DNA of 24,000 nt from Cyanobacteria bacterium J06638_28. Lineage in GTDB: Bacteria > Cyanobacteriota > Cyanobacteriia > Phormidesmidales > Phormidesmidaceae. The notes under the pieces were generated by a model, which made no database searches, was not told where the DNA came from, and was given only the letters and a program-made list of their open reading frames with translations. The position numbers and the translations under genes were made by a program. The DNA is taken from the NCBI GenBank assembly GCA_039819045.1, contig JBCBSR010000009.1:37076-61075 (forward strand). Reading direction: 5' to 3'. Below, piece by piece: positions 5,747-16,554 of the stretch; positions within the stretch are counted from its first letter, which is position 1, and the number at the start of each line of letters is the position of its first letter.

Positions 5747-5986
5747 TTACGAGACTGAGGTTGGTTCAGCTCCCATGACTGTTGATTGTCCTGATGATGG
5801 GCTTTCAAAAGCTGATTCTGTTGGGGTTTGTCCCATTAGGGTTTCGTTATTGGTTTCACGCTCAATCCAGAGAAATATGATCGCAAAAATGGGAAACGGC
5901 AGGATATAAAAAATCATTGGAATCATAATCCAAGGCAGCCAAGAAGCAGCATACTCGCCAGTGAGTTGGGTCATGTCAGCCATCAT
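5747..5986 (-). CDS. psaI: Photosystem I subunit VIII paralog, PsaI2, with an approximately 40-aa C-terminal extension
   Basis: The N-terminal half TGEYAASWLPWIMIPMIFYILPFPIFAIIFLWIE matches the PsaI core (GSYAASxLPWIxIP plus a TM helix). AAGGAG lies upstream. The remainder is an S/T/P/E-rich tail. Confidence 0.8.
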   Translation of the reverse strand: MMADMTQLTGEYAASWLPWIMIPMIFYILPFPIFAIIFLWIERETNNETLMGQTPTESAFESPSSGQSTVMGAEPTSVS

Positions 5987-9227: not shown

Positions 9228-11585
9228 CTACCCAATCGCCACCATGCGAGCCGTGAAAAAGGCCCAGGTCGTGACGATACCGCCTAATAGGTAATGTGCA
9301 ACCCCTACAGCTCGCCCATGGGTGATGCTCAAGGCTCGGGGTTGAATGGCTGTGGTGATCCTCAATTTGTTGTGCGCCCAAACGATGGATTCAATGAGCT
9401 CTTGCCAGTAGCCGCGACCACTGAAAAGGAACATCAAGCTAAAGCCAAAGACAAAATGCCCTGCTAGGAAGATCAGCCCATAGGCCGAAAGTGCTGAGCC
9501 ATAGGAGCCAATTGCCTGGGATGCCTGAGCCCACAAGAAGTCCCGCAACCAGCCATTATTCGTGATGGCCGATTGGGCAAAGTTACCCCCTGTGATGTGG
9601 GTGATGGTGCCATCCGGACTGATCGTGCCCCACACATCCGACTGCATTTTCCAGAAGAAGTGGAAAATCACAATCGATAGGGAGTTGTACATCCAAAACA
9701 GCCCTAGGAAGACATGATCCCAAGCCGAGACTTGACAGGTACCGCCACGACCTGGCCCATCGCACGGAAAGCGGAAACCCAATTCTGCCTTATCCGGAAT
9801 CAACCGCGAACTGCGGGCAAACAGCACGCCCTTAAGAAGTACCAGCACCGTTACGTGAATAGTGAACGCATGGATGTGGTGAATTAAAAAATCCGCAGTG
9901 CCCAGGTGAATGGGCATCATGGCGATTTTGCCGCCAACCGCCACCACATCACCGCCAAACGCATGGCTAATGGGAGCCATCACCCCAGGTACCGTCGTTC
10001 CCAAGCCTGTCAGTTCAAGATTACGGAGGCCGCCAAATACATTTCCTAAAGGCTGAGCGGCCTGTAGGGCTGAGTTATTGACTGCCATGGTGTGAATATG
10101 TTGAACCCACTGGGCAAAAATGGGCTGAAGCTGAATGCCCGTATCCGAGAACATATCCTGAGGTCGCCCAAAGGCTCGCATGGTGTCGTTGTGACAGTAC
10201 ATAGCAAAACTATGGAAGCCCAAGAACTGACAAACCCAAACGAGGTGCGAAATGATGGCATCGCGGTGACGTAGTACCCGATCCAATACGTTATTGACGT
10301 GATCGGCGGGATTATAGTCTCGTACAAAGAAGATGGCCGCATGGGCCGCGCCCCCGACAATGCAGAACCCAGCAATCCATACATGATGGGTGAATAGCGA
10401 GGTAACGGTGGCATAGTCCGTGGCTAGATAAGGATAAGGCGGCATGGCATACATGTGATGCGCCACCAGCAAACTAGCTGTGCCAAACTGCACCAGGTGA
10501 ATGGCTAAGTTGGCGTGCCAAGACGTTTCAAAGATCTTGTCGAGACCTCGGTGCCCCACCGGGCCAATAAAGTTGAAAAGGGGAAACATCTTCGGAGTTC
10601 TGGCATCATCCAGCAGTTCCCGGAAGGTGTGGCCAATGCCCCAGTTCGTACGATAGAAGTGTCCAGCAATGATGAACAAGACCGCGATCGCCACGTGATG
10701 GTGAGCGATATCCGTCATCCACAAGCCCCCCGTGACGGGATTCAGGCCCCCCTTGAAGGTAAGAAAATCGGTATAGGCTGACCAGTTCAGCGTAAAGAAC
10801 GGCTTGAGCCCCTGGGCAAAGCTGGGATACAGCTCCGCCATCAGGCTCTTATCGAGAATGAAGTCATGGGGCAAGGGGATATCTTGCAAGCTGATCCCAG
10901 CATCTAATAGCTTGTTCGTCGGGGCAGCTACATGGATTAAGTGCCCAGCCCAGCCTAAACTCCCCAGTCCCAGTAGTCCGGCTAGGTGGTGGTTCATCAT
11001 GGATTCCCAATTGCGGAACCACTCCAGCTTGGGGGCTCGCACATGGTAGTGAAACCATCCGGCAAATAGCATCAGGCCAGCCATGACCAACGCCCCCATG
11101 GCAGTCCAAAAGAGTTGGAACTCATGGGTAAATCCCTGGCCACGCCACATCTGGAACAGGCCCGAGGTAATCTGAATACCGTGAAAGCCACCCCCCACAT
11201 CGGCGTTAAGAATATCCTGGCCGACGAGGGGCCAAACAACCTGGGCACTGGGTTTCACATGGATTGGATCAGCCATCCAAGCAGAAAAGTTGGAAAACCG
11301 CGCGCCATGAAAATACATGCCGCTTAGCCAGATAAAGATGATGGCCAGATGCCCAAAATGGGCGGCGAAGATTTTGCGTGAAATGTCTTCTAAGTTACCG
11401 GTGTGGGTATCAAAATCGTGAGCATCGGCATGAAGGTTCCAAATCCAGGTGGTGGTTTTGGGGCCTTTTGCCAGGGTGCGTTCAAAGTGTCCCGGTTTAG
11501 CCCATGGCTCAAACGAGGTGGGAACTGGATTGTCATCAACGACAACTCGCACCGGTTGTCGTTGCTTGGGAGGACTCGTTGTCAT
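9228..11585 (-). CDS. psaA: Photosystem I P700 apoprotein A1 paralog, PsaA2
   Basis: The 785-aa protein has the PsaA N-terminus ([21 protein letters not shown]) and the FX motif [25 protein letters not shown] lies 7 nt upstream of the ATG. It starts 64 bp downstream of chlF. Confidence 0.95.
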
Positions 11586-11649
11586 TAAAAACCTCCTGAT
11601 TTTTACTCAAAAACTGATTGATGGAAACGCCTGGATGTCAATCAGGCCA

Positions 11650-12816
11650 TCAATCTTGGGATGGCCTCGTGGCTGAAGTATTGATGTTCGTATCCAACTC
11701 AGCGATCGCCCCCAGAACCACCGGAAAAGGAACTTCACTGGTGTCTTCAATCGCTTGGATCCCCTGATTGACGCGGGTTACTACATCGGCCCAAGTGGGT
11801 ACCACTGTTTTCTGGTGGTAGGTCTCGGATAACGGAGTTGTGAAAATCTGATCAAAACCAAAGGCAGCAGTGTCTATCCCGAGTGCTGCTGACCAAATAC
11901 CTGCAACCGGAAAGGCCGCCAAGAAAAAGTGCAGCGATCGCGAAGTTGTGAAACTGCATCCGCGCCACAACAGCTTCTGCTGATTCGCTTGAATATGCTC
12001 AAAGCTGTAGGCCCGTCGCGTATTCTTGGCCCAAGGTGGTTGCGGAAAGAAAGAGGGCGCATCGGGATGGCGAATGAGCGCCGATGTCACCAAAGCCCCA
12101 TGGGCTGCACAGAGCAAAGAGCCGCCAAACACACCAATGACACCTAACTGATGAAAAGGGTTTGCGAGAATGTTGTGGTCGGCCTGGAACTGCAACATGA
12201 ACGTAAAGGTACCGGCGATACCTAGGGGCATGCCGGAAGCAAAACTGCCTTGGCCAATAGGGTAAATCAGCAATACCGAAACCGCTGCGGCAACGGGGGC
12301 TGTGAAAGCTAGTGAAATCCAGGGTCGCATCCCTAAGCGATAGCTCAGTTCCCATTCCCGATCTTGATAGGCAATAATGCCAATCACAAAGTGGAAAACG
12401 ATGAGCTGATAAGGGCCACCATTAATTAGCCACTCATGCAAAGAAGCCGCTTCCCAAATGGGATAAAAATGCAGTCCGATGGCTGGGGAGGTCGGGACAA
12501 CAGCAGCGGTAATGAGGTTATTGCCACTGAATAAAGCGCCCGACAACAGATTGCCAGTGCCATCAACATCGACTGGAGGGGCTAGCAATAGCGCCAGAAC
12601 AAACGTAATAGCAGCGGCTGATAAAGTTGGAATCATCAACACGCCAAACCAGCCAATATAGATGCGATTGTCGGTGCTCGTAACCCATCGACAAAAGCGT
12701 TCCCAGGGATGAATATTGGACGAACTTCTTAGGGTGTCTAGGGAGCGCTTAATATTTGGGACTTCTTTTAGTTGGTCAAGAGGATCGACAGCGATCGCTC
12801 TACCAAGCTGTGTCAT
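11650..12816 (-). CDS. chlF: Chlorophyll f synthase (super-rogue D1, PsbA4/ChlF)
   Basis: It has the D1 fold ([31 protein letters not shown]). [10 protein letters not shown] replaces the D1 sequence YMGR(Q/E)WELSY (QD codons 12361-12366). The Mn4CaO5 ligands are lost: D170 to S (FASGMP), E189 to D (QADHN), and the HERNAHNFPLDLA tail becomes [14 protein letters not shown]. Confidence 0.9.
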
Positions 12817-13349
12817 CTTAAAGCTCCTGTATTCATAATTTGTACAACCGTGAATCGTTCACTATCGGCAGGTATCAGCCAGTGAAAGCGCGACAATTAA
12901 TTGACCTGATTCAGACAAAATAGATAAAAATCATCTTCTTAAAAATGAACCTATTGCCTGAAAATCTGCATGCCTTGCAACAAATTGCGGTCTATTAAAC
13001 GCTGAAGGTCAATAAGAAAATTCCTGCTAGCAGAACTCATAATAGAAAGTGGGTCTTTTTCTTGGGTAGGAACCACTAGCAGGAAAATAAAGACCAATTC
13101 GAGAAATCGATTTACCTCGATTTAATGAAGCAGCATAGGGAAGAAAAGTGAAAAACCGATGAAGATACCCTGCCAATTTAGAAAAAGTTACAGTTAAATG
13201 CCTTATGCCCTGGTGAATCCAGGAAATTCCTTTCTCCGTAAGCTCAAGCATGGATAAGCCCGACTTAGAAGAATTATGCCAATATTTCTTCGGCGACTAA
13301 GCTGCATTTTTATCCGTAGCTTGCTTTGAATAGCTGCTTAATTGATAGT

Positions 13350-13370
13350 CTTTATTCACTTGTAGAATTT
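13350..13370 (+). promoter_or_regulatory. Candidate cis-element CTTTATTCACT-N3-AGAATTT, about 115 bp upstream of psbV2
   Basis: A near-identical copy lies at 16555-16574 in the other large divergent intergenic region. Confidence 0.25.
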
Positions 13371-13481
13371 TATTCGAGGTGTTACTTAGGAATGTTTTTG
13401 AAAATACAAAAGATGAAATTTGAAAATTAAAACTATGCTATTTTTGATTTATTGCTAAATGAATTTGAGGATAAAGTCTGG

Positions 13482-13991
13482 ATGTTTATTCATTTGTTGA
13501 GAATTCTGAAAAAAGTTGTGATCGGCTCTGTTTTTATGGGGTTTGTTTCATTGACATGGGCTGGTACTGTCAATGCCGCAGAAATTGACAGTACGACACG
13601 AACGGTAACTCTGAATTCTTCAGGAGACCCAATCACCCTAACAACAAAACAGTTGCTGATTGGTCAGCGTAAATTTAACGGAACCTGTTCTCAGTGCCAT
13701 CTAGAGGGTGGCACTAAGCCTAATCCAAGTGTGGATCTGAGCCCTGAAACATTGGCCTTGGCCACGCCCTCCCGTAATAACGTAGAAAGTATCGTTGACT
13801 ATTTAGAAACCCCTACGACATATGATGGCTTGCAGTCTATTGCTGACCTTCATCCATCGACTAGGCGGACTGACATTTTCCCTAAAATGCGCGATCTCAC
13901 TCAAGAGGACTTAACCGCGATCGCTGGCTATATACTGGTTCAGCCTAAAATTGTGGGCGACCAATGGGCTGGTGGCAAACCTGCACGTTAG
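13482..13991 (+). CDS. psbV: Cytochrome c-550 paralog, PsbV2
   Basis: It has a signal peptide ending TVNA/AE, the heme motif CSQCH, and PsbV blocks SVDLSPETLALATPSRNN, TPTTYDG, LHPS and DIFPKMRDLT..DLTAIAGYIL. I prefer ATG 13482 (GAGGA upstream) to the track TTG at 13452. Confidence 0.85.
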   Translation: MFIHLLRILKKVVIGSVFMGFVSLTWAGTVNAAEIDSTTRTVTLNSSGDPITLTTKQLLIGQRKFNGTCSQCHLEGGTKPNPSVDLSPETLALATPSRNNVESIVDYLETPTTYDGLQSIADLHPSTRRTDIFPKMRDLTQEDLTAIAGYILVQPKIVGDQWAGGKPAR

Positions 13992-13994
13992 CTC

Positions 13995-14033
13995 AAAAAC
14001 CCTCAGCGTTCTATAAGACGCTGGGGGTTTGTT
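13995..14033. terminator. Bidirectional intrinsic terminator between convergent psbV2 and the nblA-like gene
   Basis: The stem is ccctcagcgt (14000-14009) with acgctggggg (14018-14027), including one G-U pair. It is flanked by aaaaa on the left (a U-run for the minus transcript) and tttgtt on the right (a U-run for the plus transcript). Confidence 0.65.
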
Positions 14034-14055
14034 AGGAGAAATGGCCTATCAGAAT

Positions 14056-14223
14056 CTAAATGTCTTTGAGCAAACGTTTGAACAGATTCTCCTTCATCAT
14101 CATCTGCCGCATAATTTTGACGACATAGTCCTGTGCCTGCTCGATCGATAACCCCTTCACCTGTTCCTCAATGATTTTCAGCTCAAACTCTTGCTCTAGA
14201 GTCAACTTTCCTGAGAACTCCAT
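14056..14223 (-). CDS. nblA: NblA-like phycobilisome degradation protein (55 aa)
   Basis: Below the track cutoff. Manual translation gives MEFSGKLTLEQEFELKIIEEQVKGLSIEQAQDYVVKIMRQMMMKENLFKRLLKDI. This follows the NblA pattern L(S/T)LEQ(Q/E)F...V..(L/M)S..QA.D..V.(L/I)..QM...E..(F/Y)..L(L/I)K. GGAGGAG lies upstream of the ATG. Confidence 0.75.
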   Translation of the reverse strand: MEFSGKLTLEQEFELKIIEEQVKGLSIEQAQDYVVKIMRQMMMKENLFKRLLKDI

Positions 14224-14262
14224 TACAATTTCTCCTCCGTCAAGATCATGCTTTCGATGCTG

Positions 14263-14397
14263 TTAACGCTGAATGAACTGCATCGCAGCGATCGCACCTA
14301 GAAAAAAGACGGTTGGAATGGCTAACGTATGTACGGCTAGCCATCTGACGGTAAAAATGGGATAAGTTACTGCTTGGTCACGGTTAAAGTTATTCAT
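14263..14397 (-). CDS. psbF: Cytochrome b559 beta-subunit paralog, PsbF2 (44 aa)
   Basis: Manual translation gives [44 protein letters not shown]. It is near-identical to the PsbF consensus, including the heme-ligating His in RWLAVHTLA. Confidence 0.9.
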
Positions 14398-14424
14398 GCT
14401 AAGTAAATTCCTGCTAACGACTGA

Positions 14425-15093
14425 TCAGACGACTTCTGGTTCGACGCGACCATAGAATTGACCTTGGATTTTGACGTCCATGGCTTCTTTCGCACCGAAA
14501 TCAGTGTCCGAAGGCTGCTCGCTCTCGAAAAAACCGGCAATTTCTCCGGTTATGCGATTGACCCGGTTAATCCGCAGTGAAATTTTTCCCTCGCCCACAT
14601 CAAAGGACTTCAGCGTTGGACGAGCAAATGCTTCACTATCCGCCTGGATTGGCAAACCCATGACAGCGTCATAACCCATCGTCAAGCCTCGACCTTTAGG
14701 GTCAATGAAACTGGATGTTCGATAAGGAGGGACCTGAAAGTTGCCAACTAAACGTGTCGAAGGGCCAAGGTTACGGGATGGATTCTGATTTTTGGCCACG
14801 AGTCCTTTAACGGTGAACAGCAGCGGTACCCGTTCACCATCCGGCAACTGTACGGTTACAGGCTGAAAGTCGAATCCACCCTGCTCAGTAAATTGCAAGC
14901 TACCATCAGAACTCATGTCGAGCGAACCACTGACCTGATCAAGGGTGAAACTTTCGCGCGTTAATGGTTTGGTGACCACGAATTTACTCTCTTGGCGTTT
15001 CATCAGTGGCGATCGCCGAACCAAAAAGGTTTTGGGCTCTAAGCAGAGTTCTTTTATTTGATAGGACTTGTTTATATCGATGGCAATCTCATC
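14425..15093 (-). pseudogene. psbO: psbO2 (manganese-stabilising protein paralog), C-terminal fragment downstream of the IS insertion
   Basis: PsbO blocks ELCLEPKTF, VTVQLPDGERVPLLFTVKGLVA, FIDPKGRG, FESEQPSDTDFGAK and DVKIQGQFY. The true reading frame enters from the IS junction at 15093. Confidence 0.9.
15086..15093. repeat. Target-site duplication, copy 1 (atctcatc)
   Basis: The identical octamer recurs at 16274-16281. Each copy directly abuts an IS terminal inverted repeat. Confidence 0.8.
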
Positions 15094-15117
15094 GAGTGCA
15101 GCCCAGTCTTGCAAGAC

Positions 15118-15951
15118 TCACTGCGAGAACCTGCCATTGAGATAAGCACAGCGCTGCCATAGCACTGATTGCACATTGTCCTCATGCCACTGAGCCCCTG
15201 AGATTTTGACCCGTCTTCCAATCTGCTTGACGGTTGACTCAATCTCACCTGAGCCGACCGAAATACCTTCAGCCTGGTAATAGCTGTAGTTGACGATGCG
15301 GTGTCGGTGTTTGGCAAGATAAGCGATGAATCGCTCCACGCGCGCATGCTGCCAGTCATCGAATAAGGCGACGGCCCCCTCGACATCACCGTTCCATAGT
15401 CTGGCTTCCACCGCATTGAGTCGCGACTGCGAGCCGCCCACTTTGCCCAGGTTCTCGACGAGGTGGTACCAATCTAAGATCTCAAGGCGCTGTATTGCCC
15501 CATCGAGTTGGGCAAACAACTTCCAAATGCCATCATGACCATCGCCCAGACAAACTAACGGAGAGGCTAGCGGTTGCTGATTGACCCAGTTGACCAGACT
15601 CTGATTGTCTCGAAAGTAGGCACTGACATCGCATTGGTGCAGGTTGACAGCTTTATAGTCACGCCATTCACTGGGTTCGCCCAAAGGTGTCCGCAAGCGT
15701 ACCTTGCCGCCGTCAAGGCTCATCTCCTTCACCCCACAATCGACCTCGGGGGATATCCATTCTTGTCGATGAACCAGACGTTGTTGCGTGCTGCTCGACA
15801 CCGTGATACCCGTCAGTATGGCAATATCCTCAGCGGCACACTGGTAGGACTCGTTGGCGCTTACCAACAGACAACACTTTTCTAAATACGGACTCCACTG
15901 GCTACGAGCTTTGAGCCCTAAACGTTGGCCTTGACGTTCACTGATGCTCAA
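15118..15951 (-). CDS. IS transposase, catalytic part (orfB frame)
   Basis: The 277-aa product has DDE-like blocks MSLDGGKVRLR, CLGDGHDGIW and GSGEIESTVKQIGRRVKISGAQW. It has no convincing start of its own (TTG) and lies in the -1 frame relative to orfA. Confidence 0.8.
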   Translation of the reverse strand: MSISERQGQRLGLKARSQWSPYLEKCCLLVSANESYQCAAEDIAILTGITVSSSTQQRLVHRQEWISPEVDCGVKEMSLDGGKVRLRTPLGEPSEWRDYKAVNLHQCDVSAYFRDNQSLVNWVNQQPLASPLVCLGDGHDGIWKLFAQLDGAIQRLEILDWYHLVENLGKVGGSQSRLNAVEARLWNGDVEGAVALFDDWQHARVERFIAYLAKHRHRIVNYSYYQAEGISVGSGEIESTVKQIGRRVKISGAQWHEDNVQSVLWQRCAYLNGRFSQ

Positions 15952-16208
15952 GTCTCCGATGATGCTGGCGATTGCTCGATGCCGTCCACTCGTAGTGCCG
16001 CTGCTCGTGCAGATAAAAAATTACCGATTTCCGGCCCTACATGCTCTAGCAGATGACCACGTACGGCTTTTTCAATCCCTTCTAGGGTCTTAACCGCTTC
16101 TGGGTCAGTCTCCTCATACAGCAACGCTGCGATCTCCTCAGTCAGGACTTTGAGGCGGGCTTCCTTCGAGGCATCCATGGGGTAACCAGTGAGGGGTGAA
16201 CTCTCCAA
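15948..16208 (-). CDS. IS transposase, N-terminal part (orfA frame)
   Basis: 86-aa ORF; the likely ATG is at 16178 (MDASKEARLK). It contains the heptamer T_TTT_TTA (16014-16020) in the X_XXY_YYZ register. The -1 frame is open from that point into orfB. Confidence 0.65.
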   Translation of the reverse strand: MESSPLTGYPMDASKEARLKVLTEEIAALLYEETDPEAVKTLEGIEKAVRGHLLEHVGPEIGNFLSARAAALRVDGIEQSPASSET

Positions 16209-16273
16209 AGCTTACCGCTCGTGCCATCATCCAAGGTGAGCATGATTACTCATTGCATAACTGGGATGCACTC

Positions 16274-16281
16274 ATCTCATC
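16274..16281. repeat. Target-site duplication, copy 2 (atctcatc)
   Basis: See 15086-15093. Confidence 0.8.
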
Positions 16282-16443
16282 TAAGCTAACCTCTGAAAGC
16301 TGAGGACAAAGATTCGCTAACCCACTCCCTCTAATATCGTCATAGCTTAGTGAAGCATTACTTGTTTGTGAGCCACTACTACAGGCAGTAAGTAATCCCA
16401 AACACAATGCTAAGAGAGTGGCTATTAAGGCACGGTATTTCAT
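16274..16443 (-). pseudogene. psbO: psbO2, N-terminal fragment upstream of the IS insertion
   Basis: MKYRALIATLLALCLGLLTACSSG is a signal/lipobox-like leader, followed by the PsbO N-terminal block LSYDDIRGSGLANLCPQLSE. The frame then reads into the IS end and stops. Confidence 0.9.
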
Positions 16444-16554
16444 CTTCTTACCCAAATCTACTTATTTGAACGATTGCTAAGTTTGGAGCATGAGCACCGA
16501 TGCTCGCTGCAATATAGGCGCTCCTTTTGAATTCAGATAAGGTCTTCTTCCTAC

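Follow-up and report, generated by a model that had tools for sequence, protein, structure and literature searches.

IS256 in icaC of Staphylococcus epidermidis is an example of gene inactivation by an insertion sequence (IS) of the IS256 type. The ISMich2 group, whose transposases are Mutator-like DDE enzymes of class p-MULT 4, consists of simple ISs, about 1.2 kb long, which are bounded by terminal inverted repeats and flanked by target-site duplications of 8 bp; all of its elements have two open reading frames (ORFs) and a conserved -1 frameshift, which has been read as programmed frameshifting (Guerillot et al., 2014, PMC3942029). Clusters of genes for far-red light photoacclimation (FaRLiP) include optional members, of which psbO2, psbV2 and psbF2 are typical of early-branching Nodosilineales (Antonaru et al., 2024 preprint, 10.1101/2024.05.15.594131). 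Here, we describe a 24-kb stretch of DNA, referred to below as the window, that holds the FaRLiP cluster of Cyanobacteria bacterium J06638_28, a marine metagenome-assembled genome (MAG), and in which psbO2 is split by an IS. We consider it highly probable that an ISMich2-group element transposed into this optional far-red gene, producing an 8-bp duplication and inactivating the gene, and that the element is probably active.

The locus can be compared with each of these systems. With IS256 in icaC it shares an IS of the Mutator superfamily, an 8-bp duplication, the loss of a non-essential gene and the expectation that precise excision would restore that gene; it differs in the IS family and the host, and there is no evidence of reversion or phase variation for the psbO2 insertion. 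With the ISMich2 group it shares the size of the element, the terminal inverted repeats, the 8-bp duplication, the two ORFs with a predicted -1 frameshift and a cyanobacterial host, and copies of the group from Microcystis were found among its relatives at 49% identity. It differs in that the window element ends in GAG and not in GGG. With the FaRLiP clusters of Nodosilineales it shares the order apc operon, psbO2-psbF2, psbV2 and chlF-psa-rfp, and its PsbO2, once rebuilt, has 72-81% identity to the PsbO2 that the clusters of relatives encode; in J06638_28, however, the gene is interrupted and nblA probably lies within its transcription unit.

The insertion is made up of the following features, given in window coordinates:

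16282-16443, minus strand: psbO2 5' fragment, 54 codons, with a signal peptide that has a lipobox-like LLTAC, running to ...CPQLSEVSL
16274-16281, no strand: target-site duplication copy 1, ATCTCATC, which is GATGAGAT on the gene strand
16253-16273, minus strand: inverted repeat at the transposase 5' end, GAGTGCATCCCAGTTATGCAA
15094-16273, minus strand: insertion sequence of 1180 bp, assigned to the ISKra4 family, ISMich2 group, with its transposase codirectional with psbO2
15094-15114, plus strand: inverted repeat at the transposase 3' end, GAGTGCAGCCCAGTCTTGCAA
15086-15093, no strand: target-site duplication copy 2, ATCTCATC
14425-15085, minus strand: psbO2 3' fragment, with the final base of the split codon, 219 codons and a stop

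The direct repeat is exact, and such a match at two fixed positions has a chance probability of about 1.5e-5. The terminal inverted repeats match in inverted orientation at 18 of 21 positions, and the degenerate inverted-repeat pattern has just two sites in the window, both of them IS ends, where 0.01 would be expected by chance. Excising the IS in silico, together with one copy of the repeat, leaves 16443-16282, the octamer and 15085-14425 as a continuous stretch of 831 nt, an ORF of 276 codons plus a stop that reads ...CPQLSEVSLDEIAIDINKSYQIKELCLEP... across the repaired site. A first-pass annotation of this DNA had described psbO2 as split by an IS with 21-bp inverted repeats and an exact 8-bp repeat, and had obtained an in-frame gene of 276 codons by excision in silico; every coordinate that we checked agreed with this description, and the reconstruction was reproduced.

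The product of the rebuilt gene is a full-length PsbO. In its excised form only, the sequence covers positions 2-242 of the 242 in the Pfam profile PF01716 (MSP/PsbO), with E=3.4e-96. Compared end to end with PsbO of related cyanobacteria, it shows identities of 81-61%, and a protein search found its closest full-length matches at 81-76% identity. No invariant column of this comparison is lost in the rebuilt protein. Cysteines C46 and C71 are invariant and both are kept; the protein alignment places the insertion point between them, as the earlier annotation had proposed. The 828 nt are free of stops, frameshifts and indels. At columns that are otherwise invariant in an alignment of 37 sequences, the rebuilt protein carries 2 private substitutions and the other sequences carry 0-2; the gene halves, which had been called undecayed, lie within the range of intact orthologues and show no sign of decay.

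The LLTAC motif stands at the end of the signal peptide (window 16380-16395, minus strand; PsbO2 residues 17-21). It is also found in the closest relatives, including proteins of PCC 7335 and Halomicronema hongdechloris, and is lacking from PsbO of Thermosynechococcus. This distribution suggests that PsbO proteins with the lipobox-like LLTAC may be lipid-anchored.

Three uninterrupted loci were available for comparison, from MAG J06626_18 (L082), Leptolyngbya sp. SIO1E4 (L084) and a TARA scaffold (L087). Each carries an intact psbO2 of 275-276 residues at the same position, which diverges from the apc operon; downstream of it come psbF2, nblA (present at two of the three loci), psbV2, chlF and psaA2. 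The DNA of the rebuilt gene aligns without gaps to L084 and L087 and with one codon gap (3 columns) to L082, and the octamer GATGAGAT corresponds to one single GATGCGAT in each of them. The window itself begins with rfpA, which runs off its left end, and continues with rfpB, psaF2, psaL2, psaB2 and psaA2; then come a divergent PsbA of 388 residues (chlF-like), psbV2, nblA, psbF2 and the split psbO2; and it ends with three allophycocyanin genes, apcE2, another apc gene and a D2/D1-like (psbD-like) gene. The orientation of chlF-psa-rfp matches that given by Antonaru et al. (2024, 10.1101/2024.05.15.594131). Judged by sequence and position, the split gene is a FaRLiP-cluster PsbO paralogue, syntenic with that of other Nodosilineales.

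Upstream of intact psbO2, at a distance of 75-90 bp, two distinct lineages conserve an ORF of 46 residues that the window does not contain. It is found at the following places:

L084, approximately 5780-5925: upstream 46-residue ORF
L085, 526-666: upstream 46-residue ORF
L086, 1088-1228: upstream 46-residue ORF
L087, 5786-5926: upstream 46-residue ORF

The ORF codes for a second signal peptide of the PsbO type, which has a lipobox, followed by ...LSYDDIKE(E/G)ISL(I/V)(K/Q)T and a stop. It is intact in both lineages, and in L087 its DNA is only 57% identical to the 5' end of psbO2. It could be either a partial duplication of the psbO2 5' end or a small lipoprotein or leader ORF. When the region upstream of psbO2 in the window was aligned with that of the three orthologues, no clear conserved block that could be a far-red promoter motif was seen except for the area of the ribosome-binding site. 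An Rfam scan of the whole window gave no family at its gathering score.

The transposase consists of two overlapping ORFs, a feature absent from the first-pass annotation:

15948-16178, minus strand: orfA, ATG at 16178, 76 codons plus a stop, zero frame
16014-16020, minus strand: heptamer T TTT TTA, in frame with orfA, the predicted site of -1 programmed frameshifting
15118-16017, minus strand: orfB, -1 frame portion, 299 codons plus TGA

When fused, orfAB gives a product of 353 residues that aligns end to end with full-length homologues. In the alignment it retains the invariant D156, D213/D216 and E314, candidate catalytic residues spaced by about 57 and about 101 residues. On its own, orfB (277 residues) matches the NCBIfam ISKra4 model NF033572 with 250.6 bits (cutoff 205) over profile positions 101-421 of 422, and the element, on this and the features above, is classed in the ISMich2 group of the ISKra4 family. 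Exact look-ups of orfB and of the fused transposase in two variants returned no record.

To survey related copies, we used loci L002-L081, which come from many cyanobacterial genera and were obtained by scanning genome contigs with orfB, in a collection that does not include the source MAG; the best matches were 91% identical. About 70 loci, representing 51 distinct sequences, have the end of orfA and the start of orfB on the same nucleotide, and the T-run heptamer is present there in each. It is mostly T TTT TTA, with the variants T TTT TTG and T TTT TTT and a few cases of A TTT TTA; L045 and L048 have a 2-nt overlap of orfA and orfB instead. Most of the best 120 of 2,933 homologues, including ones that are 69-92% identical, have also been called as ORFs of about 275-277 residues. 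The NCBI protein P0128, of 353 residues, is a translation across the shift, and its DNA (L018) has no contiguous ORF. Because the -1 overlap recurs at the same position in relatives, and given the ORF lengths of the homologues, P0128 and the published account of the group (PMC3942029), the split transposase is the normal state of the element and not damage. We had considered a dead IS with a frameshift mutation in the T-run; this was ruled out, as the -1 arrangement is kept in relatives down to 35-40% orfA identity. Expression of the transposase by a -1 frameshift on T TTT TTA is a prediction from these comparisons.

The related copies are 1145-1299 bp long, all but two of them 1145-1222 bp. 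ISfinder gives a length of 1250-1400 bp for the ISMich2 group, so that the window element, at 1180 bp, is slightly shorter. The termini of the copies read G(G/A)G(T/A)GCAT, with GAG at both ends in 15 of 54, as in the window element. Among the 47 related insertions for which both flanks could be compared, 19 have a perfect 8-bp duplication and 5 a 9-bp duplication. In all these respects the window element is a typical and apparently intact member of the group.

Both junctions of the insertion are contiguous in a second assembly. In the Logan assembly of run SRR22824284, two contigs are 100% identical to the window and cross the junctions:

Window 11437-15123: Logan contig L001, which stops 30 bp inside the IS
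Window 16246 and rightwards: Logan contig L088, which stops 28 bp inside the IS

Logan is built on 31-mers, and contigs that end about 30 bp inside the IS are therefore the pattern expected of a repeated sequence. An empty allele co-existing at appreciable abundance would break the contigs at the junction itself. The first-pass annotation had named two findings that would overturn it, junctions that are assembly artefacts and a rebuilt ORF that fails to align with PsbO over its full length; the junctions recur in the Logan assembly and the alignment covers the full protein.

A contig of the sister run SRR22824326 carries the same IS end, identical at 801 of 802 bases (99.9%), and the sequence that flanks it there is entirely different, so that the IS must be multi-copy or mobile among these samples. 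The flank at this second site (L089, 1-168) is 168 bp long and has no long ORF. Searches for an uninterrupted allele of psbO2 found, in 5.8 billion protein clusters, a best full-length protein of 81% identity and otherwise only a C-terminal fragment of 100% identity, and a 28-mer across the rebuilt junction had 0 matches in JGI metagenome contigs.

The insertion leaves two pieces that could be translated. The interrupted 5' frame runs into the IS, reads ...SLDEMSASQLCNE and stops at 16246-16248, giving a product of 65 residues. The only in-frame start for the 3' fragment is a TTG in the inverted repeat at 15094-15114, from which a chimeric ORF runs to the end of the gene:

14425-15114, minus strand: chimeric ORF of 229 residues, MQDWAAL-DEIAID..., of which the first 7 codons (MQDWAAL) come from the IS inverted repeat

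Neither the signal peptide nor the first conserved cysteine is part of this ORF. It is present in GenBank as MEO1095028.1 under the name 'photosystem II manganese-stabilizing polypeptide', an ordinary product name which suggests that it was not treated as a pseudogene. From the nature of the two pieces we infer that the insertion inactivates psbO2. The loss of PsbO2 is probably tolerated, because the gene is optional among FaRLiP lineages and because mainly PsbO1, and not PsbO2, has been reported in the far-red photosystem II of Synechococcus 7335.

The course of events that we propose is as follows. A copy of an ISMich2-group element, with its Mutator-like DDE transposase, would have inserted at codon 55-57 of psbO2, an optional far-red paralogue of the gene for the manganese-stabilising protein of photosystem II. 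The transposase would have made staggered cuts 8 bp apart at GATGAGAT, and their repair would have duplicated the octamer. A -1 ribosomal frameshift on the heptamer would yield the transposase of 353 residues, and the IS is probably still active. What remains of the gene would be a signal-peptide stub of 65 residues and a 3' fragment that could be translated only without a signal peptide, and the cell most likely uses standard PsbO in its far-red photosystem II. This is an ordinary transposon insertion, of a known type of IS into a gene known to be optional, and its hallmarks fit those published for the family.

Two further genes lie downstream of psbO2 on the same strand:

14263-14397, minus strand: psbF2 (cytochrome b559 beta paralogue), 27 bp downstream of psbO2
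14056-14223, minus strand: nblA, 39 bp downstream of psbF2

Because of these short spacings, psbO2, psbF2 and nblA are likely to form an operon. The IS now puts 1.2 kb between the psbO2 promoter and psbF2/nblA, and the transposase is codirectional with psbO2. A scan for intrinsic terminators gave nothing convincing within the IS on the psbO2 strand, and a consensus scan found no outward sigma-70-like promoter at the IS end that faces psbF2; a TTGCAA in the inverted repeat has, by eye, no suitably spaced -10 element. The one hit of the terminator scan, a hairpin with a T-run at 16035-16023, was rejected, as it equals the slippery T-run. Cyanobacteria are not known to have Rho, and untranslated stretches therefore need not end transcription. 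The first-pass annotation had expected polarity on psbF2 and the nblA-like gene unless the IS supplied an outward promoter; with a codirectional transposase, no convincing terminator and no known Rho, read-through from the psbO2 promoter into psbF2 and nblA would be as likely as polarity.

A gene for phycobilisome degradation, nblA also lies inside the FaRLiP cluster at L082 (5648-5848) and L087 (7183-7350). The main text of Antonaru et al. (2024, 10.1101/2024.05.15.594131) does not mention it. Transcripts of nblA rise in far-red light in another strain, and nblA may be an unlisted optional FaRLiP gene of the J06638_28 lineage.

Among the alternatives to a recent, inactivating insertion, the one that survives best holds that the insertion is real but old or neutral, with psbO2 already dispensable or silent, so that its disruption would carry no functional message. 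The gene is absent from most lineages, PsbO1 is reported to predominate in the far-red photosystem II of Synechococcus 7335, and in around half of the related IS copies the duplications are gone, which means that copies can persist for a long time. We nevertheless judge this account unlikely, as a silent gene of some age would have to be reconciled with a coding sequence that is free of lesions and has no more private changes than intact orthologues, with a duplication that is still perfect, and with a near-identical IS copy at another locus, which argues for ongoing activity. The perfect duplication, the 2 private substitutions and the 99.9%-identical copy elsewhere make a recent insertion, as argued in the first-pass annotation, plausible.

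A second account would give the insertion a regulatory or adaptive role: psbF2-nblA would be uncoupled from far-red control, or the transposase would come under the far-red-induced psbO2 promoter, or precise excision between the 8-bp repeats would act as a reversible switch. The transposase does lie downstream of the psbO2 promoter in the same direction, with no clear terminator between the two, and elements of the related IS256 family are known to excise precisely between their 8-bp duplications. We regard this as very improbable, given that the IS end facing psbF2 lacks an outward sigma-70-like promoter, that the uninterrupted allele was found neither in the protein database (best match 81%) nor in the JGI metagenomes, and that nothing suggests selection for the insertion. 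The weakest account, an assembly artefact that put a repeated IS into the contig of psbO2 by mistake, starts from the facts that the source is a short-read MAG and that repeated ISs are the kind of sequence that assemblers misplace, but it can be dismissed almost entirely, as a misjoin would not create an exact 8-bp target duplication of the length typical for the IS group, the two halves of psbO2 fit to the base, and the independent Logan assembly is contiguous across both junctions.

Returning to the transposition of an ISMich2-group element into psbO2, four points weigh against it or limit its reach. Run SRR22824284 may consist of the MAG's own reads, and its assembly therefore excludes an artefact of the assembler but not one of the library. 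Because the source is a MAG, the population may be mixed and the occupied allele just one of its variants. The analysis covered the 24-kb window of the MAG, and both a standard psbO and any further copies of the IS would lie elsewhere in the genome. Finally, the RNAalifold consensus for a frameshift-stimulating RNA structure, from the heptamer to 75 nt downstream in 51 sequences, was empty.

These results bear on annotation and on the biology of the organism. MEO1095028.1 should be marked as a disrupted gene, its start lying inside an IS, and two-ORF transposases of this kind should not be read as dead ISs. The MAG would be a natural knockout of psbO2 whose FaRLiP cluster is otherwise intact. 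A more far-reaching idea, to which we give very little credence, is that far-red light drives the transposase from the psbO2 promoter and that precise excision between the 8-bp repeats restores PsbO2; if true, it would be a light-conditioned and reversible mobile-element switch in a photosystem gene. If J06638_28 can be cultured, it would offer a natural knockout for the role of PsbO2, and possibly of psbF2 and nblA, under far-red light.

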